From positions 74,440 to 138,439 of the forward strand of contig JBFMEZ010000025.1 in NCBI GenBank assembly GCA_040753215.1: DNA of 64,000 nt, read 5' to 3'. The notes below the pieces were generated by a model. It did not search any database, had not been told where the DNA came from, and worked only from the letters and a program-made list of their open reading frames with translations. Source of the stretch: Candidatus Micrarchaeota archaeon (lineage in GTDB: Archaea; Micrarchaeota; Micrarchaeia; Anstonellales; Bilamarchaeaceae). Both the position numbers and the translations under genes were made by a program. Below, piece after piece: positions 1-59,452 of this stretch; positions within the stretch are counted from its first letter, which is position 1, and every line of letters begins with the position of its first letter.

Positions 1-261
1 CGTGGTGGGGTAGCGCGTGTGCGCAATCCCGGCGCTCCCGTTCATATCCATATCCTTCTCAGAGAATATGCGCGAGACCAGCCCAATCCCCCTCTTCTCC
101 TCCAGTTTTTTACCGTTGTAGACCGCCATGCCCGCGGCATCCTGGCCCCTGTGCTGGAGCGCGAGCATGCCGTTGTAAACGTAGTTAGCCACGGGCTTGC
201 CGGTTTTGGACAGCACGGCGACTATGCCGCAGCTCTCCCGTTTTCCGTTCCCGGTTTTCAT
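1..261 (-). CDS. purF: Amidophosphoribosyltransferase (PurF-like class II glutamine amidotransferase), N-terminal part; the gene continues beyond the window start
   Basis: Reverse-complement translation reads MKTGNGKRESCGIVAV...YNGMLALQHRGQDAAGMAVYNG. It has a propeptide followed by a nucleophile Cys and an LQHRGQDAAG motif, as in PurF. The six-frame track only lists ATG-containing ORFs, so this partial gene is not in it. Confidence 0.55.
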   Translation of the reverse strand, partial: MKTGNGKRESCGIVAVLSKTGKPVANYVYNGMLALQHRGQDAAGMAVYNGKKLEEKRGIGLVSRIFSEKDMDMNGSAGIAHTRYPTT

Positions 262-443
262 ATCTCTGCGGAGATAACTTGCAGAAACCTGCCGGTTTCC
301 GCAATCCGGTTTCCAGTGCGCCGGCTCGTTTTCCATATCACATCTTTGCCGTTGATGTTTTAAAAACATCGTTTTGCCCTGCTGAATTGTAACCATGGTT
401 ACAAACCAGTTCTCAGTTTCCAGTTCCCTGTTTTCGAAACAGG

Positions 444-1631: not shown

Positions 1632-1798
1632 GTAGTTCTCGGTCTCCGGTTTCCAGTTTCCAGCCCGGGTAGCATACTGTTTATTCCGTTTGCCTTCTAA
1701 TAAACCTTCGCACGCCTCAGCCCGGTTTTCCCTGCATACATTCCTTACGCCGTCGGCTCCCAGATAGGTTTATATAACATTTCCGAGTAAATATAGAA

Positions 1799-2533: not shown

Positions 2534-2600
2534 TCGGTTCTCTGTCTCCGGTTCCCAGTTTCCCCGCACGCTTTTATCCCTTTCCTCCTAATCCATAGCC

Positions 2601-3005: not shown

Positions 3006-3770
3006 TCAGTTTTCGGTTCCCTATTTCCAGTTCCGCCCGTTCCCTTCCTCTTCTTCAGGAAAAATATGTACTTCTCCGCCCTCTCCAATCTGCCCTTCAG
3101 CCTTCTCACTTCCGCATCCCTCGCCACCTCCCCAACCCGCGCACTCCTTGCCCTTCTCAGCTCCGCCTCCAGCCCGTCCGCCCTCGCCTTCTCGTATTCC
3201 AGCGCCTTTCTAAGATTTGCATTCTCCTCCGCCAGTCTTGCAACCCGTTCGTCCCTCCTGCCCGATGCCCCCTCTCTTTTCACTTCCTTCTCTTCTTCCG
3301 CCACCCTCTTCTCCTCCTTTCTCGTCAGCATCAGTTCCGCATTGTGCAGAGAATACCCCTGCACAACCATATGCTTCAATAAATCCCTGTCCAGCGCAGT
3401 ATCCATCCCCTCAATCTGCCTCAGCCGGTTCTCATACGCGTGGTAGGCCTTCATCGCGCCTGCGTATGCATCCCTTATGTGCACATCATCAATGAACCTG
3501 CCCATTTCCTTCTTCTCCTCCTGCGTGAGGCTCCGCTCAGGATAAGACAACCGTACATTGAACCTTGCAGCCACCTTCTGCACAAAGCTGGGAGGCGGAT
3601 TCACATCGCTCGCAATCAGGGAAGGAACGCCCACCTTCCTTATGATTTCCACAACCCTCTCGTCGCTTGCCTCCTTCTCGCATCCAGAGGCAACAAGCTC
3701 GCCTTTCAAATTGAGTGCCGCAAAAGCCGTATACACGCCCGGGTCAATGCCAACAATGAGGTGTTGTATC
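3002..3770 (-). CDS. RNase H-like (RuvC/YqgF-fold) domain protein with C-terminal coiled coil (DUF460-like)
   Basis: The IGIDPGV motif lies just upstream of the first GTG/ATG, and the C-terminal half is an E/R/K-rich coiled coil. No canonical start codon precedes the catalytic motif; the in-frame candidates are ATT/CTC. Confidence 0.4.
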
Positions 3771-5064: not shown

Positions 5065-6402
5065 CTAAACAGCCTTCCTTATTATTTCCCTCGCCTTCCC
5101 CGCAACCTTGTCCAGCAATTCCTTATTCTTCGCTTCGGCCGTCAGTCTGATTATGCTTTCAGTTCCGGAAGGCCTAACAAGAACCCAATACCCTTCTCCA
5201 TCTATCCGTATCCCGTCCCCGGTTTCCAGTTTCCAGTTGCCGGTTTCCCGTTTCCAGCCTGATTCAAGCTCCGGCATTATCCTTTCCATCGCCTTTTTCC
5301 TGTCCGCAGTCTTATACTTCTCCCTGACCATTGGATTGGGTTTAAACCGGGCCGCAAGCGCACTGAATTTCCCTTTCTCACAGAACATCTCCACAAACTT
5401 CGCGGCAGCCATTACCCCATCAGGCACAAGCACTCCCCCCCTAAAGATGTACTCCCCAGCCGGCTCACCGCCAAAGACCCCCTCGCTCTTCACCATCTCC
5501 TCGCTCACATGCACGCTCCCCACAGAAGTCAAAACAAACTCCACCCCATTCTTCTCAACCGTCTCCTTCACAATGAGCGAGCTCTCCACCGTGCTCACCA
5601 CCTTCCCCTTCTTCTTTGCCAGCTCTTCCTCAATCATAAGCGCAAGTTGCACATCCGCATTCAAAAGCTCCCCTCTCTCATCCACAACTGCGCACCTGTC
5701 CGCATCCCCATCATGCGCAATGCCCAAATCCGCCCCGCATGCCCGTACCGCAGCAGAAAGCCAGGGCAGATTCTCCTTATTCGGCTCAGAAGGCCGGTTG
5801 AACCCCCTGGTTTCGCAGTTCAAGGATACAACCCTGCACCCCAGCTCCCTAAGAAGATAGGGCGTAACCACCGCCCCTGCCCCATTGCAGTCCACAACAA
5901 CCTTCGGCTTCTTCTTCGCAATCAGTTTCGCATCCACATTCCTCTTCACAAGTTCAACATATTCAGGAATTACATCCTCAACCCTCCTTCCCCCTGGAAA
6001 AGCCCCGTATTCCATCCCCTTTTCATATCTTTCCAGAACCCGCTTCTCTTCGTTTCTGCTTATCTCCCGCCCTTTTCTCATGAATTTCAAGCCATTATAC
6101 TCGGCCGGATTATGGGAAGCCGTAACCATCATCCCCCCGCACCCGAATTTCATGCTCGCAAAAGCCACTAAAGGAGTAGGCACAATCCCCAGCCCGATCC
6201 CATCATGCCCCGAACCCAAAACCCCACTCATGGCCGCAAAAGCCAGCGGAACCCCGCTCTCCCGCGTATCCCTTCCTATGCAGACATCTGATTCGGCAAA
6301 TGCATTTGCCATCCTTAACGCTAACTCAGGCGTAATCTCCTTTCCATAGATTCCCCTTATCCCCGAAGTCCCAAACATCGGTTTCCTATTCCCCAAAAGC
6401 AA
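5065..6402 (-). CDS. glmM: Phosphoglucosamine/phosphohexose mutase (GlmM/ManB family)
   Basis: The TASHNP phosphoserine motif, GIRG, and a C-terminal LVRPSGTE motif are present. A GTTTCC heptamer array is inserted in frame near the C-terminus (WKRETGNWKLETG). Confidence 0.8.
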   Translation of the reverse strand: MLLGNRKPMFGTSGIRGIYGKEITPELALRMANAFAESDVCIGRDTRESGVPLAFAAMSGVLGSGHDGIGLGIVPTPLVAFASMKFGCGGMMVTASHNPAEYNGLKFMRKGREISRNEEKRVLERYEKGMEYGAFPGGRRVEDVIPEYVELVKRNVDAKLIAKKKPKVVVDCNGAGAVVTPYLLRELGCRVVSLNCETRGFNRPSEPNKENLPWLSAAVRACGADLGIAHDGDADRCAVVDERGELLNADVQLALMIEEELAKKKGKVVSTVESSLIVKETVEKNGVEFVLTSVGSVHVSEEMVKSEGVFGGEPAGEYIFRGGVLVPDGVMAAAKFVEMFCEKGKFSALAARFKPNPMVREKYKTADRKKAMERIMPELESGWKRETGNWKLETGDGIRIDGEGYWVLVRPSGTESIIRLTAEAKNKELLDKVAGKAREIIRKAV

Positions 6403-8341: not shown

Positions 8342-8462
8342 GTTTCCAGTTTCCGTGTCTCTGCGGAGACAACTCCATGTTGCTTCGGCAACAACTGGCG
8401 AAGTTCTGCGGAACTTCACCATGGCAGAAACCCGCGGGTTTCCGCCATCGGGTTTCCAGTCA
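8341..8462 (+). repeat. Family A structured repeat (copy A1), flanked by GTTTCC heptamers
   Basis: A core of four consecutive hairpins: gtctctgcggagac, ttgcc-tc-ggcaa, gaagttc-tgcg-gaacttc, and atggcagaaacc...ggtttccgccat. It is near-identical to copies at 40809-40900 and 59453-59544. Confidence 0.8.
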
Positions 8463-9446
8463 TCTTTCTACGGTCGCGTTGTACCTCATCCCGTTCCAGA
8501 CTATCTTCACGTCCTCCCCTAGATAGTTCTCAATCACCGTTATGTTCCTCACGGTACCCAGGACCGCTGCGTTCTTCAGCGACTGCCTTGAATTTGTCCA
8601 GTCGGTTGCGCTCCCGCTTATCACAATCAGCTCCGGCTTCGTCTGGTCCATCATCCAGTTTATCTCAGTCAGCCCCGCGCCCATGCCGTGGTTCGGCCAC
8701 TGCACTATCTGGCACGGCCCGCTGAGCTGCGCGACCCTCTGCTGCGAGCCCAGTATGTCGCCCGTGAGCAGCACGCACAGCCCGCGGTCTTCAACCTTAA
8801 GGACAATCCCGTCATTATTCACGTCAAAGAACCTGTCCTCCCCCTTTATCGGGTTGAGCACGGTTATGTTTATCCCGTTCAGCACCGCACGGTCCCCTTC
8901 GCCAACAATCTTCAGGCTCTCTTCCCCAAGGTTCGCCAGGTAGGCGGCGTATTCCTGGCCCCCCTCCTCCGGCCTCCACACCTCCCCGAACCTGAACCTG
9001 TTGGACACGTACTCCAGCCCCCCATAGTGCTCAGGGTCATCGTGGGTTGAAACCACAAGCTCAAAATCGTCCACGCCCTTCTCCAGCAGCATGTTCACGA
9101 GTTTCTGCTGGCTTACAGAAGGCCCCCCGTCCACGAGTATGTCCGTGTCCCCTTTCTTTATGAGGACCGCATCCCCCTGCGTGTCCCCGGAGCCCACGTT
9201 GAAGAAATACACGTACAAATCCGTATTCGGCGTGCTCACGTACTCCGTGGCGCTCGCCTGCGGCGGGGTTGCGTTGCCCTGCGTGACCACAGTCCCCTCG
9301 CCCTCCCTTATCACAAGATAGCCGCCGGAAGCGTTTCCGGTTTCCGGTGTCCTGTTTCCGGTTTCCTGTTCTCCGGCAGGCGGCTGTCCGCCGCCGATGC
9401 AGCCCAAAACAAGCAAAAGAACCAGCCCGAATGCGATCCACTTCAT
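8460..9446 (-). CDS. Secreted metallo-beta-lactamase-fold lipoprotein (ComEC/Rec2-type MBL domain)
   Basis: Signal peptide with a lipobox-like LGCIGG. The MBL motifs LIDGG and HxHxDH-like STHDDPEH are present. An in-frame heptamer array after the signal peptide encodes ETGNRTPETGN. Confidence 0.6.
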   Translation of the reverse strand: MKWIAFGLVLLLVLGCIGGGQPPAGEQETGNRTPETGNASGGYLVIREGEGTVVTQGNATPPQASATEYVSTPNTDLYVYFFNVGSGDTQGDAVLIKKGDTDILVDGGPSVSQQKLVNMLLEKGVDDFELVVSTHDDPEHYGGLEYVSNRFRFGEVWRPEEGGQEYAAYLANLGEESLKIVGEGDRAVLNGINITVLNPIKGEDRFFDVNNDGIVLKVEDRGLCVLLTGDILGSQQRVAQLSGPCQIVQWPNHGMGAGLTEINWMMDQTKPELIVISGSATDWTNSRQSLKNAAVLGTVRNITVIENYLGEDVKIVWNGMRYNATVER

Positions 9447-9891
9447 ATTCTACACCAACAACCTCTTGGGTAATTCTTTTTATAAACATGCGCCGAATCC
9501 GTCCGGAATAATGCGGCAGAGAATAACACAACGGGCTTAAAACTCCCGCATCACCAGACTCCACATGGTTTCCAGACTTAGTTTCAGGTCAGAGGCAGAG
9601 CTAGGCAGGTATGTGGAACAGTAGCAGGGCAAGCTGGTCCCTGGTCGAAACGGCTTCAGGAAGATACTCGACCCCGAGGGCATGATAAGGGCCAACGTAA
9701 TACAGAATACGGACGGCTCCATCAGCGGGACCCAGTTTGCGACCCCGTTCCACACCCGGCGGGCATACGAAGAGAGAAAGGGCCATATCGGCCAGCCGGT
9801 GGAAAGGAGGGCTGGAGGGCTGCGCAGCGGATTCTGGCCGCAGGAGTGCATGCTGGATTAGAAGTTTCCGGTTTCCAGTTTTTTCTTATTC

Positions 9892-18268: not shown

Positions 18269-18361
18269 CTGTAATACCTCTATAATGTAACCATGGTTAC
18301 ATGCCAGTTTTCAGCTTCCGGTCTCCAGTTTCCAGAACGGGAAACCCGAAACAGGAAACCA

Positions 18362-20008
18362 TCAATCCCCAACCCCCTCTATAATAGCGGCATAAGCCGG
18401 CCTGGATATCAGCAATCCAAGCAGCGCACCCAGTATTGTCGAAATCGCGAACCCGATAATCTCCACCATTCCGGAGAAAAGCAAAGGAACCATCGCAAAC
18501 ACAGCCACCGTAACCGTAGTCGTCACAATCTCGAACGCCTTCGCCAGCTTCTCCTCCCTCGTCCCTTCCTTCTTCAGCAGCTCATCCGTAATCACGATCT
18601 GCGAGTCCACTCCCACCCCAATCGCCGCAATAATCCCCGCCATCCCGGCCAGATCAATAGTGAAAGACCCTATCACCGAAAGAAGTATCACCATCTCAGA
18701 GACGCTTATCGCAATAATGGGCAGGAGTATGCTCACCTTCCTGTACCTCAGCGAAACAAGGATGGAGATAGCCACAAGCGCCAGCCCGAGCCCTATTATG
18801 CTCAGCCTCAGGAACTCTTCTCCCAAAGGTGCGGGAACCACGGTCTTGGAACCGATGGAAATCTGCACAGGAAGCGCCCCGCCCTTCAGGATGGATTCTA
18901 TCTTCCTCTCGCTCTCATAAGCATTCCTTGTCTTGTCCGCTCCCGTCCCCTGCGCAGCCCCGCCTATCTGGAACCCATAATTAGGTATCCCCGTAGTAAT
19001 AGAAGGCGAAAGCCGCGGCGATGAAAGCAGCCCGACCGCCTTCCACTCATCCACCGTAGTCCCCTGCACATCCTCCGAATACTGGAATTTTGGGGAAATC
19101 TCCCCATCCTCCACAACACTTAGCACGAACCCCTTCGCTTCCAGCTGGCTTCCAATCTCCCCAGCCAGCGAGCTTGAAACAATCGCCTTCGTCCTGTTTG
19201 TTTTCGGCGTAAGGTTTCCCAAACCCCCATCATAAACATACAGCCCAATATCATTCCCATCCAGCCGCAGCGCCTCCTCCATCGCGGATAGAATCCCCTC
19301 CCTGTCCGCAACCTGCGCATTCCTGCCCAGCTCTTCCCATGCAGCCACCACAACCGCATCGTTCGGCCTGTCCAGGAACATGTATATGGGATAATTCCCC
19401 TTTCCCTTCACCGCTTCCGCAAAATGCTCCGCCCCCTCCCTGTTCACCGAGAACGCGACCCCCCAGTCCTCCCCCCTTAGCGCTGAAGGCGGCACCCTGT
19501 AAATAGTTCCCGGGAGTATATACTCCCCCCTCATCGCCTCCTTCCCGTCCACAACCCCGGTATACACCCCCTGGTGGGCAAGCACGTCCTCAACTGATTT
19601 TATGAAACCCGGGTCCGAGCTCGGCACCTCCACGTTTATCTGCGATTCACCGACCGCCCTCACCTTCACTTCCGTAAGCCCAAACGCGGATGCCCTTTTC
19701 TTTATCGTATTCACCATCTCGTCCATAAGGCTCGATGGCACAGGCTGCTCCAGTATTACCGGAATCCTCGTCCCCCCGCTGAAATCTATCCCGAACTTCA
19801 GCCCGTGCAGCCCCATGTTGAAAAGCGCAAGGAGTATTATCGCCCCCAGCCCCATCATCTTCAGCTCTTTCCCGTGCCAGAAGTGCGTGAGTGCCCCGAA
19901 CACGATTAGCGCGAGCATGAGGAAAAGTCCGGAGAAAACCGGATAGAGATAAATGGCAGCAGCGAAAAGGAGGACAAGCGCAGCCAGCACTTTCTTTGCG
20001 TCTATCAT
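18362..20008 (-). CDS. secD: Protein-export membrane protein SecD
   Basis: The GIDFSGG motif, a large periplasmic domain, and six C-terminal TM helices are present. The start is assigned to MIDAKK. Confidence 0.75.
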   Translation of the reverse strand: MIDAKKVLAALVLLFAAAIYLYPVFSGLFLMLALIVFGALTHFWHGKELKMMGLGAIILLALFNMGLHGLKFGIDFSGGTRIPVILEQPVPSSLMDEMVNTIKKRASAFGLTEVKVRAVGESQINVEVPSSDPGFIKSVEDVLAHQGVYTGVVDGKEAMRGEYILPGTIYRVPPSALRGEDWGVAFSVNREGAEHFAEAVKGKGNYPIYMFLDRPNDAVVVAAWEELGRNAQVADREGILSAMEEALRLDGNDIGLYVYDGGLGNLTPKTNRTKAIVSSSLAGEIGSQLEAKGFVLSVVEDGEISPKFQYSEDVQGTTVDEWKAVGLLSSPRLSPSITTGIPNYGFQIGGAAQGTGADKTRNAYESERKIESILKGGALPVQISIGSKTVVPAPLGEEFLRLSIIGLGLALVAISILVSLRYRKVSILLPIIAISVSEMVILLSVIGSFTIDLAGMAGIIAAIGVGVDSQIVITDELLKKEGTREEKLAKAFEIVTTTVTVAVFAMVPLLFSGMVEIIGFAISTILGALLGLLISRPAYAAIIEGVGD

Positions 20009-21251: not shown

Positions 21252-21278
21252 AAACCTGTCTGTATTATCCGATAATGT

Positions 21279-21318
21279 TTATAAAATACCGACTTTGTTT
21301 ATAAAATACCGACTTTCA
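21279..21318. promoter_or_regulatory. Tandem direct duplication of a TATA-box promoter element (gtttataaaataccgacttt x2)
   Basis: The 20-bp unit contains TTTATAAAAT and is repeated head-to-tail. It lies in the divergent intergenic region between secF and the sigma-like gene. Confidence 0.6.
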
Positions 21319-22507: not shown

Positions 22508-22530
22508 TGCGGCCGCCGGGATTCGAACCC
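22508..22530 (-). other. Displaced 23-nt copy of the tRNA-Gly(TCC) 3' end (T-arm plus acceptor), an att-like duplication
   Basis: Identical to positions 23141-23163 of the intact tRNA. It is separated from the tRNA by the cdd cassette. Confidence 0.8.
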
Positions 22531-22534
22531 TCCC

Positions 22535-22629
22535 AAAAACGCGGAGGGGAGCGCCCCTCCCCATTTTTAGGGTTCATTCTGACCCTCCCCCAACTTCTCT
22601 TTGCAACCCTTTGCCAGTACTCCTTACGC
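22535..22629 (+). repeat. Family B repeat, copy B1
   Basis: It contains aaaacgcggaggggagcgcccctcccca (a near-palindromic hairpin), then ttctgaccctccccc, ctttgcaa, and ...actccttacgc. Nine other copies are present in the window. Confidence 0.8.
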
Positions 22630-22634
22630 AAGGT

Positions 22635-23024
22635 TCAATATGCCTTATCCCAAGGATATGGAAGCAGCTCCCTGAGTTTGGCTACTTTATTTTTTCCAAT
22701 AATAACTTCTGTATCCAGGTTTTCTTCACTAATCTGGCTCATGAACTCTCTGCACGCTCCACACGGAGGGATAATTCCATATTCCGAAACTGCCACTATT
22801 TTCTTTATTTTGTACTCCCCGTTCGTAACCATGGCAGCGATGGCACCCTGTTCTGCACAGAAACCCATGCCAGAGGCGGTGTCTATACTTACGCCCGAAT
22901 AAATAGTGCCTTTATTTGAAATTAGCGCACATCCAACATCCCCGATTGTGAATCCGTGTTTTATCTTTCTCGGCTTCAATATGGATTTGGCCTTCTCAAC
23001 CAGTTGCTCATCCGTTATTTGCAT
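22635..23024 (-). CDS. cdd: Cytidine deaminase
   Basis: The zinc-binding motifs CAEQGAI and PCGACREFM are present. The protein is ~129 aa, starting at MQITDEQL. The gene is markedly AT-rich (~40% GC) relative to its surroundings. Confidence 0.8.
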   Translation of the reverse strand: MQITDEQLVEKAKSILKPRKIKHGFTIGDVGCALISNKGTIYSGVSIDTASGMGFCAEQGAIAAMVTNGEYKIKKIVAVSEYGIIPPCGACREFMSQISEENLDTEVIIGKNKVAKLRELLPYPWDKAY

Positions 23025-23099: not shown

Positions 23100-23140
23100 A
23101 CGGATACCGAAAACCCAAAACGGGAAACAGGAAACTGTTT
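23100..23140 (-). terminator. T-rich GTTTCCN heptamer array immediately 3' of tRNA-Gly(TCC)
   Basis: On the transcribed strand it reads aaaacagtttcctgtttcccgttttgggttttcgg, with several oligo-T runs. An equivalent array follows tRNA-Gly(GCC) at 38521-38559. Confidence 0.5.
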
Positions 23141-23396: not shown

Positions 23397-23448
23397 TTCT
23401 GACCCCCTCCCACTTCACTTTGCAACTCTTTGAACGTACTCCTTACGC
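23397..23448 (+). repeat. Family B repeat, partial copy B2, upstream (on the minus strand) of tRNA-Gly(TCC)
   Basis: Reads ttctgaccccctcccacttcactttgcaactctttgaacgtactccttacgc. Confidence 0.7.
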
Positions 23449-23500
23449 GTGGGGTTCAGTATTTATATTATGGCAAGAGAAGAAAATTAAAAGACCGCGC

Positions 23501-24817: not shown

Positions 24818-24959
24818 AAACTCAACCCCCTTCAGTTTCCGGTTCCCTGTTCTCAGTTCCCCGAATTTGGTTCCAACCTTTGTTTCCGCCCATTTATTAC
24901 CCTTTCCCGCATTCCGCGATACAAATGCCTTAAATATATTCCTATTCCAATACAAATGC

Positions 24960-26810: not shown

Positions 26811-28175
26811 ATGCCGGAGATGCGCATCTACCCCCTGAAGAACGTCCCCGAAGAAATAATCGCAGCCGCCTTCGCAAAAACCAGCCGCTCCCCCGAGCCC
26901 TTCGACAAGATAGCGGCAGAGCTGAGCGCCGAATCATCTTCAAAATTCCACGAGAAATGGGTAGTGGGCTACGGCCACTCCAGCGTAGCCGAGCATTCTG
27001 TCGCCCATCTCGCAGCCGAAAACATCTCCCGCCTCGCGATAGAAACGATAGAATCCAACCGCCTCGGCTCCTACACCGAGAAATCCACCCGCTACCAGCA
27101 ATTAGATGAGGAGCATACCCATCTTCCTGAAGAAATCAAGGGAACCTCCCTCGAGCGCAATTACAAGGATGCCCTGGACATTCTCTTCTCCACCTATGAA
27201 AAGTCCCTCTCAGCCCTTGTGGATTACTACTCCTCCCAATCAAAGCCCGAACCAGGAAAGGAGAAGGCCCACGAAATCAAGCTCAAAACCATGGCAATGG
27301 ATTCTGCCCGCTTCCTCCTCCCCAACTCCACCCTCGCAAACGTTGGAATAACGATGAACGCCCGCTCCCTCGAGCACGCGCTCGTAAAGATGCTTTCCCA
27401 TCCCCTTGCAGAAGTAAGAAGGGCAGGCCTTCTCCTGAGGGATGCAGGGATGCAGGCATTCCCGACTCTTCTCAGGAAGGCGGAGGAAAACACAGCGCTT
27501 GCCGGGTTCCAGGAAGAATCCAGAAAACAATTCAGCCCGTTCTCCTCCCCCGCAGGAAGCAAGCACGCCTCCCTCATCCACTACGATAAAAATGCCCTCG
27601 AAAACCTCTCCGCCTCCATCCTATACCGCTGGAGCGGCCTCTCCTATGAAGATGCACTGGAGCATGTGCGCTCCTCCAGGCCTTCCAGTCCGATGGAAAT
27701 ATTCAGGTCCGTAACCGCCCGCTTCCCCGAAGGCCTCAAGCCAATCCGCGAGTTCGAGCACATCACCTACACCTTCGATTTGCTGATGGACCAGGGCGCC
27801 TACTACGAATTCAAGCGCCACCGCATGCTCACCATAAGCGCCCAGGAGCCCACAATCTCCCTCGGCTACAGAATCCCCCAGGATATAGAAAAATGCGGAA
27901 TGAAAAAAGAATTCGCAGAAGCGATGAAGGAGAGCGAGGGATGCTTCCGGGAAATAGAAGAAACCCATCCCTTTGCAGCCGGCTACATCGCCACGAATGC
28001 CCACCACCGCCGCGTCCTCGCAACCATGAACCTCCGCGAGCTCGCAACCTTCATAAAGCTCAGGAGCGCCCCATTCGCCCACTTCACCATCCGCGAGCTT
28101 GCCCTTGAGATGCTGGAGGAATTGAGGAAAGTCCACCCGGAATTCGCGGAATCCATAGGGCCCGGAGTGGTTTAA
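26811..28175 (+). CDS. thyX: FAD-dependent thymidylate synthase ThyX-like, tandem two-domain form
   Basis: The N-terminal half reads GHSSVAEHSVAHL...RYQQL. The C-terminal half carries RHRMLTISAQ, the ThyX RHRxxxxxxxS-type motif. At 454 aa it is about twice the usual ThyX size. Confidence 0.55.
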   Translation: MPEMRIYPLKNVPEEIIAAAFAKTSRSPEPFDKIAAELSAESSSKFHEKWVVGYGHSSVAEHSVAHLAAENISRLAIETIESNRLGSYTEKSTRYQQLDEEHTHLPEEIKGTSLERNYKDALDILFSTYEKSLSALVDYYSSQSKPEPGKEKAHEIKLKTMAMDSARFLLPNSTLANVGITMNARSLEHALVKMLSHPLAEVRRAGLLLRDAGMQAFPTLLRKAEENTALAGFQEESRKQFSPFSSPAGSKHASLIHYDKNALENLSASILYRWSGLSYEDALEHVRSSRPSSPMEIFRSVTARFPEGLKPIREFEHITYTFDLLMDQGAYYEFKRHRMLTISAQEPTISLGYRIPQDIEKCGMKKEFAEAMKESEGCFREIEETHPFAAGYIATNAHHRRVLATMNLRELATFIKLRSAPFAHFTIRELALEMLEELRKVHPEFAESIGPGVV

Positions 28176-32154: not shown

Positions 32155-32198
32155 CAGTCTTCAGTCCCCAGCTCCCGGTTTCCAGCCGGATGCTTTCC

Positions 32199-33460: not shown

Positions 33461-33561
33461 ACCGCGGGGAGAGCGCTCCCCCCATTCAGTTTCCTGTTTC
33501 CAGCCTCCAGTTTCCCTAAACCCTAAACGGGAAACCGGGAACTCTCTGACCCCCTCCCACT
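33461..33561 (+). repeat. Family B repeat (copy B3) fused to an inverted GTTTC-heptamer hairpin, flanked by a ~50-bp duplication of the upstream gene's 3' end
   Basis: The displaced copy 33411-33460 encodes AQWLLKEKMVELLQ*. The current gene end 33562-33611 encodes EEAQWLLKEKMAELLQ*. Confidence 0.7.
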
Positions 33562-35076: not shown

Positions 35077-35214
35077 TTAGGGGGCACAGTTCCAGTTTCC
35101 TGTATCCGGTTTTCAGTTTCGATTGCTTTATGGCTATGCTTTCCATTTTTGTAGTCCCATCCAATCGGGAAAGTGGAGACTGAAAACCTGTTGCTGGAAA
35201 CCGAAGACTGATTT

Positions 35215-35238
35215 AGCCCCGGAGGGGGATTGAACCCC
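35215..35238 (-). other. Displaced 24-nt copy of the tRNA-Thr 3' end (T-arm plus acceptor)
   Basis: Matches positions 35871-35894 of the intact gene. It is followed directly by B-family copy B4 (35241-35333). Confidence 0.75.
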
Positions 35239-35240
35239 TC

Positions 35241-35333
35241 CAAGAAGAAGGGGGAAGGCGTTCCCCCCTCTCTTTAGGGTAATCATACCCCCCTTCCACT
35301 TCACTTCGTCACTCTTTGCACGTGCTCCTTACG
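35241..35333 (+). repeat. Family B repeat, copy B4
   Basis: Reads aagaagaagggggaaggcgttcccccctctctttagggtaatcata...cttcacttcgtcactctttgcacgtgctccttacgc. Confidence 0.75.
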
Positions 35334-35375
35334 CCCGACCGAAAGAGATTAAATCCACGCCCCAGAACATCTCGT

Positions 35376-35870: not shown

Positions 35871-36078
35871 AGCCCCGGAGGGGGATTGAACCCCCGACCT
35901 CTCGCTGTCCCGTTTCCGGTTTCCGCATCTCTGCGGAGATGACTCCGCTTCTCTGCGGAGAAGACTGGCAGAATCCTTCGGGATTCCGCCATGGCAGAAA
36001 CCTGCTGGTTTCCGCCATCCTGTTTCCAGTTCCGAACCGGATTACGAGGCGAGCGCTCTACCGCTGAGCTACCGAGGC
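35871..36078 (-). tRNA. tRNA-Thr (anticodon CGT) with ~136-nt intron (about 35906-36041) in the anticodon loop at or near position 37/38
   Basis: Exon 1 reads GCCTCGGTAGCTCAGCGGTAGAGCGCTCGCCTCGTAA and exon 2 reads GCGAGAGGTCGGGGGTTCAATCCCCCTCCGGGGCT. The anticodon stem is ctcgc/gcgag with loop ctCGTaa. The intron contains a family-A repeat copy. Confidence 0.7.
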
Positions 36079-36080
36079 GC

Positions 36081-36174
36081 AAAGAGGAAGGGGGAAGCGT
36101 TCCCCCTTCTCTTTAGCGTAATCATAACTCCCTTCAACTTTGCTTAGGGGATGCTTTGCTCGTACTCCTTACGC
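36081..36174 (+). repeat. Family B repeat, copy B5, directly upstream of the tRNA-Thr 5' end
   Basis: Reads aaagaggaagggggaagcgttcccccttctctttagcgtaatcataac...ctttgctcgtactccttacgc. Confidence 0.75.
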
Positions 36175-36304
36175 ATTTCTTTGCTCCCCAACTTTTATTA
36201 AATTGAGGAGAACGCCAGGAGCAGGATTTGAACCTGCAATCCCTTGCGGGACTCGTTTTCGAGACGAGCGCGTTCACCGGGCTCCGCCATCCTGGCAGCA
36301 ATTA

Positions 36305-37549: not shown

Positions 37550-38533
37550 ATGGGCGATTATGTTTCCCGCAATGCCAATCCTGTCCTTAAGAGCATAGCG
37601 CCGGTTGTCGAACGTTCGGTGCATGTCCGGATAGACTGGGACCGGTTAAAGCAATTTGCCAGCCGGTTCATGGAAGGCAACATAAGGCACTGGGTGGCAG
37701 CCTCCCACGTCGACCTCTCAGGCATGGGCGCCGATGAGAAACTAGCTTTCCTATTCGTCTTCAATTCGATCAGCTTCAGCTACTGGGGCAGCCCGAAATG
37801 GTCGGTTCCGCTCGAGGGCGTGCCCCAGCGCGGAACCCTCTACATGCTCCACTGCCTGCGCAGGGCGGTGGCCGAAGGGAAGCCCATCCTGAACCCAGAC
37901 TACCTCGCCACAATCCGCAGGGAGGAACTCGCGGAAATCCTGAAAGGAACCCCTGAAATCCCTCTTCTCGACGCGCGCAACAATATACTCCGGCAGCTGG
38001 GCAGCGTGACCGCCACCGGCTGGGGCGGCAAATTTTCAAATTACCTGGAAGCCGCATGTGGGGATGCGGTGGACCTCCTACTGGTCATTGAACACGCCCT
38101 GCCGTCTTTCTGGGATGAGCCATGTTACGGAAATGATGGCGTGAGGGTTTTCTTCTACAAGCGCGCCCAGCTTCTGGTTTCAGATATCCATGCAGTATTC
38201 AACGGCGAGGGATACGGTGATTTAGTGCGCACCGAAAAACTGACCGCATGCGCCGACTATATTCTCCCCATGGTTCTCAGGCACCATGGCATACTCGTGT
38301 ACAGCCCTGTTCTCGCGGATGTTGTCGATAACGGAGTTGAGGTCAAAAACGGCAGCGATGAAGAAATCGAGATAAGGGCCAACACCGTATTTGCGGTAGA
38401 ACTGCTAAAGAGCGAGCTTCTTGGGAGGTTTCCGGGCATAACCTCCATGCAACTGAACGATTATCTCTGGCTCTCAAGAACAAGGCTTCCAGAAGGCGTG
38501 AAACATCATCTCACAAGGACAACTGCCTACTGA
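37550..38533 (+). CDS. DUF2419 / Qng1-like protein (queuosine 5'-phosphate N-glycosylase/hydrolase family)
   Basis: Several segments align to human C9orf64/QNG1: VFFYKRAQLLVSDIHAVFNGEGYGD, ADYILPMVLRHHGILVYS, EEIEIRANTVFAVELLK, and LNDYLW. A TATA-like TTTTTATATT lies about 25 nt upstream of the MGDYV start. Confidence 0.65.
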   Translation: MGDYVSRNANPVLKSIAPVVERSVHVRIDWDRLKQFASRFMEGNIRHWVAASHVDLSGMGADEKLAFLFVFNSISFSYWGSPKWSVPLEGVPQRGTLYMLHCLRRAVAEGKPILNPDYLATIRREELAEILKGTPEIPLLDARNNILRQLGSVTATGWGGKFSNYLEAACGDAVDLLLVIEHALPSFWDEPCYGNDGVRVFFYKRAQLLVSDIHAVFNGEGYGDLVRTEKLTACADYILPMVLRHHGILVYSPVLADVVDNGVEVKNGSDEEIEIRANTVFAVELLKSELLGRFPGITSMQLNDYLWLSRTRLPEGVKHHLTRTTAY

Positions 38534-38559
38534 AACTGGAAACCGAGAACTGGATGCTG
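38521..38559 (-). terminator. T-rich heptamer array 3' of tRNA-Gly(GCC)
   Basis: The transcribed strand reads aaatcagttttcagcatccagttctcggtttccagtttca. Confidence 0.45.
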
Positions 38560-38630
38560 AAAACTGATTTGCGGCCGCCGGGATTTGAACCCGGGTCGCC
38601 AGATTGGCAATCTGGAATCCTACCGCTAGA
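38560..38630 (-). tRNA. tRNA-Gly (anticodon GCC)
   Basis: Reads GCGGCCGTAGTCTAGCGGTAGGATTCCAGATTGCCAATCTGGCGACCCGGGTTCAAATCCCGGCGGCCGCA. The anticodon stem is ccaga/tctgg with loop ttGCCaa. Confidence 0.85.
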
Positions 38631-38633
38631 CTA

Positions 38634-38768
38634 CGGCCGCTCCAAGAGGAAGGGGGAGCGCCCCCTTCTCTCTAGGGTACTCATAACCCCCCATCAATTG
38701 CGGGGCTGTGAATTCATTCTGACCCCCTCCCACTTCACTTTGCAATGCTTTACTCGTACTCCTTACGC
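38634..38768 (+). repeat. Family B repeat, copy B6 (long form), upstream of tRNA-Gly(GCC)
   Basis: Reads aagaggaagggggagcgcccccttctctctagggtactcataa...cattctgaccccctcccacttcactttgcaatgctttactcgtactccttacgc. Confidence 0.75.
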
Positions 38769-38853
38769 ATAGGGGCGTGCATCTCTTCTAACCGAAGAGC
38801 ATTCCTATTTTCCAATAAAACCTTTTATTAACTTTCTTGCAGCAATTTGCTCC

Positions 38854-40790: not shown

Positions 40791-40808
40791 CCAGTCCCCC
40801 GTTTCCAC

Positions 40809-40900
40809 ATCGCTTCGCGATGACTCCATGTTGCCTCGGCAACAACTGGCGAAGTTCTGCGGAACTTCACCATGGCAGAAACCTTCCGGGTTTCCGCCAT
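40809..40900 (+). repeat. Family A repeat, copy A4, overlapping the 5' end of the PHP gene
   Basis: Reads atcgcttcgcgatgactccatgttgcctcggcaacaactggcgaagttctgcggaacttcaccatggcagaaaccttccgggtttccgccat. Confidence 0.8.
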
Positions 40901-41538
40901 CCAGTTTCCCGAAGCTAAACATTGACTTCCACGTGCACACCTCCTTCTCTTCGGATGGAAGGATAAAATTAGCTGAACTCGCCTCCCTTTCCAAACAATT
41001 CGGAATAATCCCCGCCCTCACCGACCACAACAACATGGATGCCTGCTCCCCCTTCAAAAAATTCGAAATCCCCTTCATCCCCGGAGAGGAAATCCGCGTT
41101 GCACAGGGCGATTTCATAGGCCTCTTCCTCTCCGAGCCGATTCCTGAAGGGATAGATTTCTACGAAGCCCTCGACTTAATCCGTGCGCAGGGAGCCCTCG
41201 CTTATGTCCCGCACATGTTCGACGCACTCCGCCCCGGAGTAGTAAAGGAGGAATACGGAAAAGCCGCAGACATAATAGAAGTATTCAACGCCCGCTCCTT
41301 CGCCCGCTTCGACAGGCAGGCAGAAGAATTCGCCAAAAGGGAAGGCAAATTAATGGCGGCAGGAAGCGACGCCCACTTCCCGTTCGAATTCGGGCACACT
41401 TATACCGAATTAAGCCTCACCCCAGACCAACTGGAACCCAAATCTCTTCTCCGCGCTTTAAAGAATGCGAGAATAGCAGGAAAGCGCACTTCTTTTCTCA
41501 AGAGGAAAATAGCGAAATATACCGGAATCTACATCTAA
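40828..41538 (+). CDS. PHP-domain phosphoesterase; the only in-frame ATG lies inside repeat A4
   Basis: The PHP motif begins at LNIDFHVHTSFSSDG, with a later GSDAH motif. No ATG/GTG/TTG lies between the repeat and the first His motif. The annotated N-terminus MLPRQQLAKFCGTSPWQKPSGFPPSSFPK is therefore repeat-encoded. Confidence 0.6.
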   Translation: MLPRQQLAKFCGTSPWQKPSGFPPSSFPKLNIDFHVHTSFSSDGRIKLAELASLSKQFGIIPALTDHNNMDACSPFKKFEIPFIPGEEIRVAQGDFIGLFLSEPIPEGIDFYEALDLIRAQGALAYVPHMFDALRPGVVKEEYGKAADIIEVFNARSFARFDRQAEEFAKREGKLMAAGSDAHFPFEFGHTYTELSLTPDQLEPKSLLRALKNARIAGKRTSFLKRKIAKYTGIYI

Positions 41539-43816: not shown

Positions 43817-43920
43817 CCAGGGAAGATATCCGCAGATTTGCAGCCTCAGATTGTCGGTTATGGAAGGAAAAAATCCGCAAAAGTTTCCTTCCATGTTAGA
43901 CGCCTTATAGCATCGTTTTT

Positions 43921-44122
43921 CACTGAACCTCCACGGCTCGGTCACACCTTGTAGTCGCCTGCGTGGCGGCGATAGGTCTGCCTAGCCATTGGGTGCGGCT
44001 ACAAGGTGTGAGGAAGCCTCGGCATTTATGCCGGGGAGGAGAGCCGAGGCTTCCTCTAAAGGCAGCAGGAATACATCTGCCCTTTATCTACGAAGAAGCC
44101 ACGGCCTTTAGTGGAGGTTCAC
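43921..44122 (+). repeat. Family C ~200-nt structured repeat, copy C1
   Basis: 99% identical to 46120-46325. The ends (cactgaacctccac...gtggaggttcac) are inverted-repeat-like and can pair. It has internal hairpins (gaggaagcctcggc/gccgaggcttcctc and caccttgtag/ctacaaggtg). Confidence 0.8.
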
Positions 44123-44945: not shown

Positions 44946-44951
44946 TCCCGG

Positions 44952-45020
44952 AAAAACGCGGGGAACCCAGGTTCCCCCCATTTTTACCGTTTATTCTGAC
45001 CCCCTCCTAACGGTTTTCAG
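44952..45020 (+). repeat. Family B repeat, short copy B7, lying between fen-1 and its displaced 3' end
   Basis: Reads aaaaacgcggggaacccaggttccccccatttttaccgtttattctgaccccctcc. Confidence 0.7.
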
Positions 45021-46054
45021 AGCCACTTATCCAATGTTCGTTGGCTTCTTGTTTCTTTTACATTGCTTAGCATTCCCTCTAAAGCTCTTTCTACCCTCTC
45101 CCTTGAGAAATCGTGCTCCTCCACCAACAATTCTATTACTCCCTCCCTGCTCGCCTTCCCCCACCCCAGCTCTCCGACCTCCTTCACTGGCGGGCTCATG
45201 AAAAAACCGAAAATCGCCTCCACATCCTCAGGAAACTCATATCCCTTCTCCTTCTTCAAATATGCCCTCACCTTCTCCAGCGTATCATTCTCTTTCACAA
45301 TCTTCAGACCGGTTTTCGGCCCAATCCCCCGCACCCCTTCATTGAAATCCGTTCCCACAAGAATCCCAATCAAAATCAATTGCTCCCTCTTCAGCCCAAG
45401 CGCCTTCAGCGTCTCTTCCAGCTCCACCCTCTCAATCTCTATATCTATGAACCTATTCTGCTTCGGCACCTTCCTTTTCCCGGTAATGGACAAATTCCTC
45501 AAAAGCACCGGCGACCCAAATAGAACCGAATCATAATCCTGCGATGCGGCCGCATAGCAAAGCCCTGTCCCCACCATCCACGCTGCCTGCGCCTCCCCTT
45601 CAGAGGGCGCCTGCACCCAGGGAATCCCCATCAGTGAAAGCAGCCTCTTCCCCTCATCCACCATCTCCTTGGTGAGCCGCGAGCTTGCCTGCGCATATTT
45701 CCTCGCCTCCTCAATTTTCTCCTCCGCAAGCGCCTTCTTCCATTTGTGCTCCGCCTCCCTCCGCACCTCTATCCTTTCCTCTATAGTTTTCCTCTTGAAT
45801 TCCGGCGGAGGCCCGTCAAACACATAAATAGGTTTTATCCCAGCATTCACCAATCTTATGCTCCTGTAAAATAGCCCAGATAAATGCCCGGTCACCCGCC
45901 CCTTCATATCCATTAAGGGCGTCCCGTCCTCCTGCCTTATGGAAGCCAAAAATTGATAGAGTATATTCATCCCATCTATCGCTATGCTCTTTCCCGCAAG
46001 CTCCTCCAGCTCGACCTTGTGCTTAATTGCAAGGTCGCCCAAATCTACTCCCAT
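45017..46054 (-). CDS. fen: Flap endonuclease 1
   Basis: The XPG-N and XPG-I motifs and the N-terminal sequence MGVDLGDLAIKHKVELEELAGKSIAIDGMNILYQFL are present. The C-terminal PIP-like box reads QRTLDKWL. Confidence 0.9.
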   Translation of the reverse strand: MGVDLGDLAIKHKVELEELAGKSIAIDGMNILYQFLASIRQEDGTPLMDMKGRVTGHLSGLFYRSIRLVNAGIKPIYVFDGPPPEFKRKTIEERIEVRREAEHKWKKALAEEKIEEARKYAQASSRLTKEMVDEGKRLLSLMGIPWVQAPSEGEAQAAWMVGTGLCYAAASQDYDSVLFGSPVLLRNLSITGKRKVPKQNRFIDIEIERVELEETLKALGLKREQLILIGILVGTDFNEGVRGIGPKTGLKIVKENDTLEKVRAYLKKEKGYEFPEDVEAIFGFFMSPPVKEVGELGWGKASREGVIELLVEEHDFSRERVERALEGMLSNVKETRSQRTLDKWL

Positions 46055-46119
46055 CCTAATCCTCGCTTACCTATAATCAGGCATACTTTTATTTCTCTGC
46101 CTGCCGCAGCCGGCAGACT

Positions 46120-46325
46120 CACTGAACCTCCACGGCTCGGTCACACCTTGTAGTCGCCTGCGTGGCGGCGATAGGTCTGCCTAGCCATTGGGTGCGGCTA
46201 CAAGGTGTGAGGAAGCCTCGGCATTTATGCCGGAGAGGAGAGCCGAGGCTTCCTCTAAAGGCAGCAGGAATACATCTGCCCTTTATCTACGAAGAAGCCA
46301 CGGCCTTTAGGCCGTGGAGGGTCAC
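46120..46325 (+). repeat. Family C repeat, copy C2
   Basis: See copy C1. This copy ends in the perfect hairpin gccacggcc-ttta-ggccgtggag. Confidence 0.8.
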
Positions 46326-46872: not shown

Positions 46873-46932
46873 TTGCCAGGTGCGATGCCACTAATCGGTT
46901 CTCAGTTTCCGGCTCCCAGTTTCCAGAACCAT

Positions 46933-49467: not shown

Positions 49468-49782
49468 GTGAAGAAAATGGAGGAAAGATTGGAGGAGTTT
49501 GAGGAAATAGAGGAGCCAAAAAAGGGGAGAAAGCCAAGTTCTGATGAGTCCGAATCCGCACCGAGCGAAAGCGTTGGCGCGAGGCCGGACTTCCGCGTGG
49601 TCCAGACCGAAAGGGATGCGGAGGGCAAGACAATATACAAGAACGTGGGTGGGCTCTGGAAGCGCACGAGCAAGAATGGAAACACATACTACAGCATGAG
49701 CATAGGCCGATTGAGGCTGCTCGTATTCCCTAACGACAGGGATGGTGGTTCTTATGGCAGAGAAGACAGAGAAGAAATATGA
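49468..49782 (+). CDS. Hypothetical acidic/basic small protein
   Basis: 104-aa ORF with a strong Shine-Dalgarno-like sequence (aaaaggtgaag) about 8 nt upstream. Confidence 0.4.
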   Translation: MKKMEERLEEFEEIEEPKKGRKPSSDESESAPSESVGARPDFRVVQTERDAEGKTIYKNVGGLWKRTSKNGNTYYSMSIGRLRLLVFPNDRDGGSYGREDREEI

Positions 49783-55625: not shown

Positions 55626-56710
55626 CCTATAATCCTGTCGGGGTCGAACGGCTCGATGTCCCCGTACCCCTGCCCGGTCCCCACGTATATCACCGGCAGC
55701 CCGGTCACCTTTGACACGGAAACAACCGCCCCTCCCTTCGCATCGCAGTCCAGCTTGGTGAGTATCACGCCGTCAAGCCCTATCTCCTTATGGAAAACCG
55801 AAATCTGCTCCACAATCGCGTTCCCCGCGATGCTCTCCCCGACATAAATCTTGAGCTGCGGCGCGATGACCCTGTCCATCTTCTTCAGCTGGTTTATGAG
55901 GTTTATGTTCGTGTCCTGCCTTCCCGCAGTGTCTATGAGCACTGCATCCGCCCCGTGCGCCTTCGCGTATTCCACCGCGTCGAACGCGAGCGCGGTCGGG
56001 TCCGAGCCGTAGGCGCCCGAGACGACCTTCACCCCGAGCCGGTCCCCGTGGTGCCTAAGCTGCTCCACTGCAGCAGCCCTGAAGGTGTCCGAAGCCGCAA
56101 TCACGACCGATAGCCCCTCATTCTGCAGCATCTTCGTTATCTTCGCTATCGTGGTTGTTTTCCCTGAGCCGTTCGGCCCCATGATCATTACCTTCGCAGG
56201 CTTTTCCGTTTCCCTCACCCTCTCCGGGATGGAAAAGCCCTTCACGCCCACAAGCCCGATGAGCGTCTCCCTGAGCTGCCCCTTCACGAATTCCGCGGTC
56301 TTTCCCTTCGGGATTTTCGCCCCCACGACCCTCTTCCTGAGCTCTTTCTTCACGTCCTCGGCAACCTCAAGCGCCACATCGCTCTCTATGAGCCCGAGCT
56401 CCAGTTCGTCCAGCAGCTCCCCGACCTCGGATTCCTTTATCTCCGATGCGCCGGTGATGGTCTCCTTTACGGCAGAAAAGATATCCTTCCTTACCTTCCT
56501 TTCCAGCTCCGCGGTTTCCTGCCCCGCAACCCTTCCGGTTTCCAGTTTCCGGCTCCCAGTTTCCCGGGCGCGTTCCTCCCTCCTTTCCATAATTGGGGCG
56601 GCTGCCTCCGCCGCCTTTTTCTCTTCAAAAACAGCCTCCGGCTTCCTCTCCTCCTTCCCGGCTATGCTCTCCACGAAACCCGAAATCTTCTTCTTCAGGA
56701 GCTCAAACAC
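55610..56710 (-). CDS. ftsY: Signal recognition particle receptor FtsY
   Basis: The NG domain motifs GPNGSGKTTT, DTFRAAA, and DTAGR are present. The N-terminal acidic region contains an in-frame heptamer array (ETGSRKLETG). Confidence 0.9.
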   Translation of the reverse strand: MFELLKKKISGFVESIAGKEERKPEAVFEEKKAAEAAAPIMERREERARETGSRKLETGRVAGQETAELERKVRKDIFSAVKETITGASEIKESEVGELLDELELGLIESDVALEVAEDVKKELRKRVVGAKIPKGKTAEFVKGQLRETLIGLVGVKGFSIPERVRETEKPAKVMIMGPNGSGKTTTIAKITKMLQNEGLSVVIAASDTFRAAAVEQLRHHGDRLGVKVVSGAYGSDPTALAFDAVEYAKAHGADAVLIDTAGRQDTNINLINQLKKMDRVIAPQLKIYVGESIAGNAIVEQISVFHKEIGLDGVILTKLDCDAKGGAVVSVSKVTGLPVIYVGTGQGYGDIEPFDPDRIIGEILS

Positions 56711-58888: not shown

Positions 58889-58978
58889 ACTCCTCCCTAA
58901 AACGCGGAGGGGAGCGCCCCTCCCCATTTTGAGGGTTCATTCTGACCCTCCCCCATCTCCCCTTTCCATTGCTTTGCA
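58889..58978 (+). repeat. Family B repeat, copy B9, inserted between rpl39e and rpl31e and flanked by a 15-bp direct duplication (catgctctcactcct)
   Basis: The duplicates at 58870-58884 and 58977-58991 contain the rpl31e RBS/ATG and the rpl39e stop region respectively. Confidence 0.75.
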
Positions 58979-59433: not shown

Positions 59434-59452
59434 ATAAGTCCCCAGTTTCTAT

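Follow-up and report, generated by a model that had tools for sequence, protein, structure and literature searches.

Heptamer arrays in a Micrarchaeota genome are the outer edges of a small modular hairpin repeat family

We analysed a stretch of 64,000 nucleotides (nt), hereafter the window, from a Candidatus Micrarchaeota archaeon (NCBI GenBank assembly GCA_040753215.1, contig JBFMEZ010000025.1, positions 74,440 to 138,439 of the forward strand), for which a first-pass annotation made from the letters alone had described arrays of a GTTTCCN heptamer at gene ends and in frame inside genes. We found that these arrays are the outer edges of a small, modular family of hairpin-forming repeats, which that annotation had missed. 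In our judgement they are probably the terminal or minimal parts of a lineage-specific, non-autonomous and stop-poor selfish repeat family of the RPE and MJRE kind, which also grows by local duplication of 14 or 21 nt. The main points of interest are a tRNA intron built of the repeat and the wide range of essential genes that have taken up in-frame insertions in this reduced archaeal genome.

Architecture and fold of the repeat family

The heptamer motif was present at 17 of the 17 places named for it, and its suspected excess over the background was borne out by a count in the window: GTTTCC occurs 99 times against 37.7 +/- 6.5 expected from dinucleotide-preserving shuffles, the phased doublet GTTTCCNGTTTCC 12 times against 0.00, and arrays of 3 or more phased units, each with no more than 1 mismatch, 9 times against none in 100 shuffles. 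A looser scan of the window gave 19 arrays, and in 15 of these the plus strand carries GTTTCC; the hexamer itself is split 74 (+) to 25 (-) between the strands; the Pfam-supported genes of the window are divided about evenly between strands, and the plus strand is C-rich throughout. The arrays are not the clean microsatellites they had been taken for, as their units are phased but degenerate (NGTYYYC), with never more than 2 perfect units in a row; the glmM array at 5217-5262, for instance, reads GTTTCC-A-GTTTCC-A-GTTGCC-G-GTTTCC-C-GTTTCC.

The plan of the family places 1-3 GGAAACN units on the flanks of 0-4 short perfect hairpins, with a total size of about 35-135 nt. The core is GAT-GGCGGAAACC-loop-GGTTTCTGCC-AGT-YATCKC-loop-GMGATR, in which a first hairpin of 10 base pairs (bp), GGCGGAAACC/GGTTTCTGCC or covarying variants of it, precedes a last hairpin YATCKC/GMGATR. 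Between the two stand 0-2 extra modules of 6-8 bp joined by CCAGT or GGAGT linkers, and the short form consists of the first and last hairpins only. A full copy of about 119 nt, read on the minus strand, starts with 1-3 GGAAACN units and GG-ATGGCGGAAACC-loop-GGTTTCTGCCAT, followed by hairpin 2, by CCAGT with hairpin 3, by YGGAGT with hairpin 4, and by 2-3 closing GGAAACN units. Beside partial and short copies, four near-complete copies of about 119 nt occur in the window (8342-8460, 35912-36030, 40793-40911 and 59437-59555), and those at 40793-40911 and 59437-59555 are 93% identical at unlinked loci. The hairpin elements, placed on a gene map obtained by Pfam scans, are as follows (ORF, open reading frame).

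8342-8460, minus strand: E1, long form, heptamers with four hairpins and heptamers, exactly filling the gap between convergent stop codons
40793-40911, minus strand: E2, long form, at the 5' end of a plus-strand PHP-domain gene, antisense and in frame with the ORF
35905-36036, minus strand: E3, long form, the intron of tRNA-Thr(CGU)
250-315, minus strand: E4, short two-hairpin form, in the purF leader/propeptide (79.5 bits)
59437-59555, minus strand: E5, long form, just past the S19e stop inside a ribosomal-protein operon, an insertion relative to the relative L149
23281-23346, minus strand: E6, variant two-hairpin form, in the leader upstream of tRNA-Gly(UCC), first hairpin GGTGAAGTTC/GAACTTCGCC (48 bits)
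63567-63632, plus strand: E7, variant two-hairpin form, in the leader upstream of pheS, the sole copy in opposite orientation (53 bits)

A covariance model built from 17 short copies matched 8 copies in the window, 7 of them in one orientation, the exception being 63567-63632; beside these hairpin copies the window has about 17 arrays. In the alignment 98.9% of the cells pair and 3 pairs change on both sides, and the covariation score was reached by none of 500 shuffles. Compensatory changes are seen in stems such as TGTCTC/GAGACA, CATCGC/GCGATG and CATCTC/GAGATG, and in TGTTGC/GCAACA versus CTTCTC/GAGAAG, while the first hairpin has the fully compensated variants GGTGAAGTTC/GAACTTCGCC, GGCGGAATTC/GAATTCTGCC, GGCGAAGTTC/GAACTTTGCC and GGTGGAATTC/GAATTCCGCT. 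Each of these variants keeps one G.U (G.T) wobble near its base and, since this would be an A.C mismatch on the opposite strand, the GGAAAC strand appears to be the one whose structure is kept. The long forms fold with z scores of -4.8 to -7.1 and the hairpins overall with -3.3 to -7.1. The 119-nt copies hold only 1-3 stop codons over six frames, compared with a mean of 6.4 in random windows, and a GGAAACN array makes no stop codon in any frame. Solo arrays share a unit order (GGAAACT GGRAVCC GGARRCY GAGAACY) and have the ends GTTCTGGAAACTGG...GAGAACY in common, and they appear to be the family's zero-hairpin form. Rfam holds no family for the element, and no description of it was found in the literature on repeats of Micrarchaeota and DPANN archaea, archaeal heptanucleotide repeats and Micrarchaeota tRNA introns.

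Gain of copies, proposed movement between loci and growth in place

The nearest protein relatives, among 5.8 billion proteins, are only 80-86% identical, and the syntenic contigs of three relatives (L001 to L003, L004 and L149) have 76-82% nucleotide identity to the window. We globally aligned about 30 kb of this synteny and listed every insertion or deletion of at least 15 nt. The window has 18 specific insertions of that size, of which 10 are plainly family sequence and an eleventh has an array at its edge; the relatives have 5 of their own (two at one locus), none of them family sequence. The core gave no covariance-model match in the relatives' loci (about 52 kb), where arrays by the strict definition number one in all, against 1.4 per 10 kb in the window. 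At orthologous positions the relatives are without elements and have much shorter spacers: E1 is absent from L001 and L004, in which the flanking convergent genes overlap, the spacer after S19e is 27 nt in L149, and the sites after the Nre and SecF stops bear no seed in the relatives. Judged by these alignments, copies have been gained at many unlinked sites since the divergence from the relatives. The family, which by an estimate from the coordinates of its parts takes up about 2% of the window in a small and tightly packed DPANN genome, makes up the greater part of the recent insertions in the window.

We asked how far growth in place could explain the same arrays, that is, whether they arise from chance GGAAAC seeds by slippage or tandem duplication with no movement between loci. 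The arrays of GlmM, of the MBL lipoprotein and of the first PheS site consist of two diverged 21-nt half-repeats, a single 'GKRETGD' or 'QETGG' seed stands at the same sites in relatives, Tandem Repeats Finder reports periods of 7, 14, 22 and 26 in the window, and GGAAACN arrays are found in unrelated phages, all of which would be expected of a pure microsatellite. Such an origin is nevertheless unlikely in our view, as it does not fit the four-hairpin copies of 119 nt at unlinked loci with up to 93% identity, the ordered units and common ends of the solo arrays, the seedless sites in relatives, for example past the Nre and SecF stops, or the presence of the core in unrelated genes of other genomes. 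Local tandem duplication clearly contributes.

Several observations weigh against a mobile selfish family. No target-site duplication was seen at the boundaries of the Nre, SecF, E1, E2 and E5 copies, for which the empty sites are approximate at 76-82% identity, and no terminal inverted repeats at the reconstructed insertion boundaries; with relatives this distant, exact empty sites are not definable. L001, L002 and L003 are 99.9% identical over their shared parts with no insertions or deletions, and hence offer no strain-level polymorphism. The arrays of the MBL lipoprotein, PheS site 1 and FtsY involve little or no net insertion, and single GGAAAC-like seeds lie at these sites in relatives, so that local slippage or duplication explains them equally well. 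GGAAACN arrays also occur in unrelated phage contigs, which means that the heptamer alone is not diagnostic. Finally, Pfam scans of the window ORFs revealed no transposase, integrase or reverse transcriptase, and an autonomous partner was not identified anywhere.

If the selfish-repeat reading is right, the elements would spread by copy-and-paste of a single-stranded, hairpin-bearing intermediate, because the wobble is kept on one strand, the orientation bias is 7:1, and there are neither inverted ends nor target duplications. This would recall REP/RAYT or IS200/IS605 systems, although the window's Pfam-scanned ORFs include no enzyme of that sort. Arrays and modules might then grow or shrink by tandem duplication of 14, 21 or about 22-24 nt, and within genes selection would pass only multiples of three.

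Copies in coding sequence, in a tRNA gene and past stop codons

The elements persist where harm is small: past stop codons, in leaders, in a tRNA intron and, where they are translated, in frame in loops, linkers or termini. The coding copies are the following.

5207-5263, minus strand: GlmM coding array, two diverged 21-nt half-repeats, net +21 nt relative to all relatives
9333-9374, minus strand: MBL lipoprotein array, in the linker after the lipobox
56533-56572, minus strand: FtsY array, in the hypervariable N-terminal linker
62189-62275, minus strand: PheS site 2, a 78-nt in-frame insertion of heptamers, a perfect 14-bp hairpin CGAACCAAACCTCC/GGAGGTTTGGTTCG and heptamers (z -3.4)
63074-63109, minus strand: PheS site 1, in the N-terminal domain linker, common to the closest relatives only

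All five are in frame, as the first-pass annotation had it, and encode peptides of the ETGN/WKLETG type (GlmM ...SGWKRETGNWKLETGDG; MBL lipoprotein ...EQETGNRTPETGN; FtsY ...RETGSRKLETG; PheS ...EKLETGNRELET and a second site). Compared with all 19 relatives aligned, GlmM is longer by exactly 7 residues (3 units, 21 nt); at this site close relatives have a single GKRETGD and more distant ones GKVSxxD. In an AlphaFold model (mean pLDDT 87.7) the insert falls in a surface loop that joins helix 360-379 to strand 390-394 and is the part of domain 4 modelled with the lowest confidence (pLDDT about 59-65). The second PheS site does carry the heptamers reported for it, and it is really a 78-nt composite with a 14-bp hairpin, adding 26 residues at a hypervariable loop where relatives have 0-13 extra residues. 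The arrays in FtsY, MBL and PheS site 1 lie in variable linkers and are common at most to the nearest relative or involve few residues. Expansion or transposition of the motif, and its tolerance in loops and linkers, are thus supported by the 7 residues of GlmM, the 26 of PheS and the linker arrays of FtsY, MBL and PheS; the coding arrays, common at most to the nearest relative, are not conserved residues of unrelated archaea.

Two further elements touch reading frames. E4 is a 48-nt in-frame insertion at purF, and E2 carries the only in-frame ATG upstream of the PHP domain, so that it would supply both start and N-terminus. Among the proteins, GlmM and PheS have gained residues from the family, and PurF may have done so too, provided that translation starts at the upstream ATG.

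Beyond this genome, an exact scan of GTDB representatives for the first hairpin placed the core in at least five Micrarchaeota metagenome-assembled genomes (MAGs), among them CAIXOA01, JAGVON01, JACCLI01, JAQUBA01 and JAXDAS01; the other exact matches are bacterial and were reported without the rest of the element and not inspected. The core was also present in about 12 JGI metagenome contigs and was not found in IMG/VR. Copies elsewhere are often inside long same-strand ORFs, mostly in the frame ...VSAS(Y/H)R..., and six conserved host genes were confirmed by Pfam: Cu-ATPase, where the element separates the HMA domain from the ATPase core; a MiaB-like enzyme, whose TRAM domain is split by the element; GatD, where the element comes after GatD_N and before the asparaginase domain and is accompanied by an ETGNRKLETG array; an EndoIV-like TIM barrel; uS9; and a FolC-like ligase. 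Among uS9 orthologs, L119 has a four-hairpin form at the site where three others have the two-hairpin form and, because they differ by 48 nt at one site, module number evidently changes in place and in frame. When the translated long form was compared with 1.84 billion representative proteins, one true match (a 55-residue ORF) and three unrelated repeat proteins were returned.

A scan of IMG/VR for (GGAAACN)3 gave 61 contigs, mostly with unrelated phage microsatellites. The one among them whose inverted pairs resemble those of the window, L083 (UViG 3300035696_002945), comes from a tailed phage, as it encodes terminase and portal proteins, and carries several GGAAACN arrays at 2233-2704 and 8611-8669; it has a perfect inverted array pair right past a stop codon and an array cluster upstream of the terminase genes, and no copy of the hairpin core.

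One copy lies in an RNA gene, that of tRNA-Thr(CGU). The gene, at 35871-36078 on the minus strand, is a complete Rfam tRNA match (46 bits) in whose alignment 138 nt are inserted in the anticodon loop, and it was not detected by ARAGORN. Its intron of about 136 nt is unusually long and composed wholly of E3. In the predicted fold of the pre-tRNA the anticodon stem is accompanied by a 4-5 bp helix in which CUCG(U), from the loop, pairs with (A)CGGG, from the end of the intron; a 3-nt bulge ACA carries the 3' splice site and a 3x2 internal loop the 5' splice site, and a further helix UCCGGUU/AACCGGA is made of heptamer sequence. Set against archaeal bulge-helix-bulge tRNA introns, the position 37/38, the 4-bp central CUCG/CGGG helix and the 3-nt 3' bulge are present, whereas the 5' site in its 3x2 internal loop, the length of about 136 nt made entirely of repeat, and the absence of the motif from the other copies are not of that type. 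On the modelled fold, then, the intron has the canonical position and what looks like a relaxed bulge-helix-bulge motif; in the window such features belong to this copy only. At 35221-35245 on the minus strand the T-arm and 3' acceptor strand of this tRNA occur once more, behind a leader copy of their own and with a GNAT acetyltransferase gene lying between, and this partial duplication looks like one of the attachment-site type.

We considered that all the elements might act at the RNA level, akin to bulge-helix-bulge introns, being cut from transcripts including mRNAs by the splicing endonuclease and spreading by intron transposition. The canonical 37/38 position of the tRNA-Thr copy and the helices formed by element heptamers around its splice sites speak for this, and a broad-specificity three-unit splicing endonuclease belongs to the Micrarchaeota (ARMAN-2). 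However, the four measurable coding insertions (GlmM +21, purF +48, PheS +78 and uS9 +48 nt, the last from L119 versus L107) are all stop-free multiples of three, for which the chance is about (1/3)^4, the other copies have direct rather than complementary flanks and no two-bulge motif, and 20 related loci yielded no additional copy in an intron. We therefore hold this explanation to be very improbable for the family, and splicing of the coding copies is unlikely.

The intron bears as well on a bolder version of the selfish-repeat reading, which we regard as doubtful, namely that the elements are mobilised as single strands, from lagging-strand-template DNA or RNA, by a hairpin-recognising enzyme or the tRNA-splicing machinery. 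If that were true, the tRNA-Thr intron would be a gain or replacement by a selfish repeat caught in the act, and the family would be giving essential proteins of this reduced DPANN genome loops that they did not have before.

The remaining arrays of the window are these.

408-443, minus strand: array with a small hairpin, directly past the Nre stop
1634-1669, minus strand: array between the divergent Nre and TFIIE-alpha starts (divergent promoters)
2536-2571, minus strand: array 2 nt past the TFIIE-alpha stop, T-rich in that plus-strand transcript
3009-3035, minus strand: array past the NUDIX stop, doubling as C-terminal codons of DUF460
9863-9881, minus strand: short array past the translin stop, at the edge of a 418-nt window-specific insertion
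18303-18362, unstranded: inverted array pair forming a hairpin directly past the SecF stop (-26.7 kcal/mol, z -3.85)
23100-23140, plus strand: array immediately following tRNA-Gly(UCC), with a T-rich reading in the transcript of that tRNA
24835-24861, minus strand: array in the glutamine synthetase 5' untranslated region (UTR), between a TATA-like box and the ATG
32156-32191, minus strand: array past the eIF2-alpha stop
33481-33545, unstranded: inverted array pair past the Gins51 stop, a weaker hairpin than 18303-18362 (z -1.4)
35090-35210, unstranded: two inverted arrays about 60 nt apart, MITE-like, upstream of a Fic gene (z -3.3)
38521-38566, plus strand: array after tRNA-Gly(GCC), T-rich in its transcript, and also past a plus-strand queuosine-salvage gene
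46897-46932, minus strand: array directly past the stop of an HTH gene, GGAAACT GGGAGCC GGAAACT GAGAACC, bounded by GGTTCT...AGAACC

The placement of arrays at gene ends was correct for many of them, which begin 0-8 nt past the stops of Nre, SecF, HTH, eIF2alpha, translin, TFIIE and NUDIX genes or follow both tRNA-Gly genes, and was wrong for 1634-1669, 24835-24861 and 3009-3035. Of the inverted pairs, those at 18303-18362 and 35090-35210 fold into significant hairpins and that at 33481-33545 is weaker. The stretch 286-444 is really the short hairpin element 250-315 plus the array 408-443, with an unrelated conserved palindrome, GTAACCATGGTTAC, between them.

The idea that the arrays are oligo-T terminators on whichever strand is transcribed is not supported as a rule, since their orientation tracks the chromosome strand and not the gene: where protein genes lie on the minus strand (Nre, translin, eIF2alpha, HTH), the RNA past the stop has GGAAAC and lacks a T run, and a T-rich reading is obtained only for the two tRNA-Gly genes and, among plus-strand genes, for TFIIE and NUDIX. 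A wider form of this idea, in which the copies are selected cis-acting signals (terminators, mRNA 3'-end stabilisers or processing sites, or protein-binding sites regulating neighbours), gains from the many copies beginning 0-8 nt past a stop codon, from the stable hairpins (z -3.3 to -7.1), the covarying stems and conserved wobble, from the T-rich reading after both tRNA-Gly genes, and from the arrays upstream of the terminase gene in the unrelated phage contig L083, repeats near terminase genes being sequences that can serve as protein-binding sites. We still think it improbable, as orientation follows the chromosome rather than the transcript and leaves GGAAAC RNA after most minus-strand genes, copies lie in 5' UTRs, between divergent promoters, in coding sequence and in an intron, and orthologous positions in the relatives are without elements, which are thus not required there. 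A terminator role is not a general rule and may hold at particular sites, such as after the two tRNA-Gly genes, and under the selfish-repeat reading any terminating or mRNA-stabilising effect at particular sites would be a by-product.

Two other kinds of site were set apart from the family. The perfect palindrome GTAACCATGGTTAC stands at 389-402 and 18287-18300, upstream of purF and thrS, and is a separate site, kept at both places in the relative L004, where no arrays adjoin it; it is probably an operator for a regulator. Origin-recognition boxes (TTCCAGTGGAAAC-like dyads) were also ruled out, as the arrays are direct repeats scattered over 64 kb and do not cluster at an AT-rich stretch beside an orc1/cdc6 gene.

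Likeness to known repeats and neighbouring features

The Rickettsia palindromic elements, RPE (Ogata et al. 2000, reviewed in PMC2229807), are, in the account given by that review, dispersed hairpin repeats found also in frame in protein genes, which they leave undisrupted, and with no known transposase, and MJRE, from Methanocaldococcus jannaschii (Suyama et al. 2005, as PMC2229807 cites them), are mostly extragenic palindromic repeats with a few non-destructive coding copies. The present family resembles the former, so described, in its short, dispersed and stable hairpins in intergenic DNA, in RNA genes and in frame in conserved genes, with no transposase known. It differs in being archaeal (DPANN), in having several short independent hairpins in place of one long palindrome, in its direct heptamer flanks instead of terminal inverted repeats, in its variable module number and in its strong one-strand polarity. 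With the MJRE of the same account it has in common that archaeal palindromic repeats include some non-disruptive coding copies; the phylum is different, and heptamer arrays or an intron copy are not described for MJRE there. The likeness to both is one of kind, by description, and not of sequence-family membership; what we see here of that kind are many dispersed copies, stable hairpins, in-frame insertions absent from orthologs, and copies in intergenic DNA and RNA genes. The core alone stands in frame in at least eight conserved genes across MAGs. For MJRE, only three copies, of MJRE2, have reportedly been placed inside genes.

Other comparisons are more partial. Like REP/BIME-RAYT and IS200/IS605-derived elements, the family has short hairpins on one strand, no terminal inverted repeats or target duplication, an orientation bias and a location after genes; unlike REPs, which are extragenic by definition and have a conserved 5' GTAG, it enters coding sequence, and no Y1/HUH transposase gene was seen among the Pfam-scanned ORFs of the window. 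BOX elements of Streptococcus pneumoniae, boxA-(boxB)n-boxC, come from a bacterium, are confined to intergenic DNA and lack heptamer arrays; the likeness to them, a variable number of internal hairpin modules between fixed ends, is one of architecture only and not of sequence. Transposable elements of the miniature inverted-repeat type (MITEs) differ in that the core here is flanked by direct GGAAACN repeats, with only 35090-35210 and the inverted array pairs resembling terminal inverted repeats, and in their target-site duplication, absent at the approximate empty sites given above.

After Rickettsia, the family would offer a second system, this time archaeal, in which to follow the making of protein loops by selfish hairpin DNA, and its tRNA-Thr copy is a concrete candidate for the origin of long archaeal tRNA introns. 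For gene calling in such MAGs it matters that elements cause false N-terminal extensions and shadow ORFs, and that ARAGORN missed a tRNA here.

A second repeat family was noted; on the minus strand it has the plan TAAGGAGTACG...GTGAAGTGGGAGGGGGTCAGAA followed by a hairpin GGGGAGGGG-CGCT-CCCCTCC. It occurs upstream of all four tRNA genes, of L31e, of pheS and of others, and its copy before L31e is an insertion relative to L149. E6, E7 and the hairpin elements in L018, L144 and L011 are inserted between the halves of this second family or inside its hairpin. Its sites are these.

22529-22635: second-family repeat
23397-23454: second-family repeat
35246-35340: second-family repeat
36100-36176: second-family repeat
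38680-38774: second-family repeat
44946-45031: second-family repeat
58892-58977: second-family repeat
63538-63660: second-family repeat

Four other features of the window deserve mention. The RadA gene at 49742-52252 encodes 836 residues including a LAGLIDADG-domain intein, and its L149 ortholog is intein-free with 321 residues. A ThyX ORF of 454 residues at 26811-28175 contains two Thy1-family stretches and appears to be a fused or duplicated ThyX. Direct repeats of 192 nt at 43920-44111 and 46119-46310, 99% identical, flank methyltransferase and FEN1 genes; with a folding energy of -99.9 kcal/mol (z -6.7) and a match to the archaeal HgcC RNA family that, at 24.5 bits, stays below the gathering score of 50, they may be a duplicated structured non-coding RNA. 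Lastly, a perfect 20-nt tandem duplication of TGTTTATAAAATACCGACTT (two copies) lies at 21276-21316, in the divergent spacer between SecD and a sigma-70 region 4-like gene.

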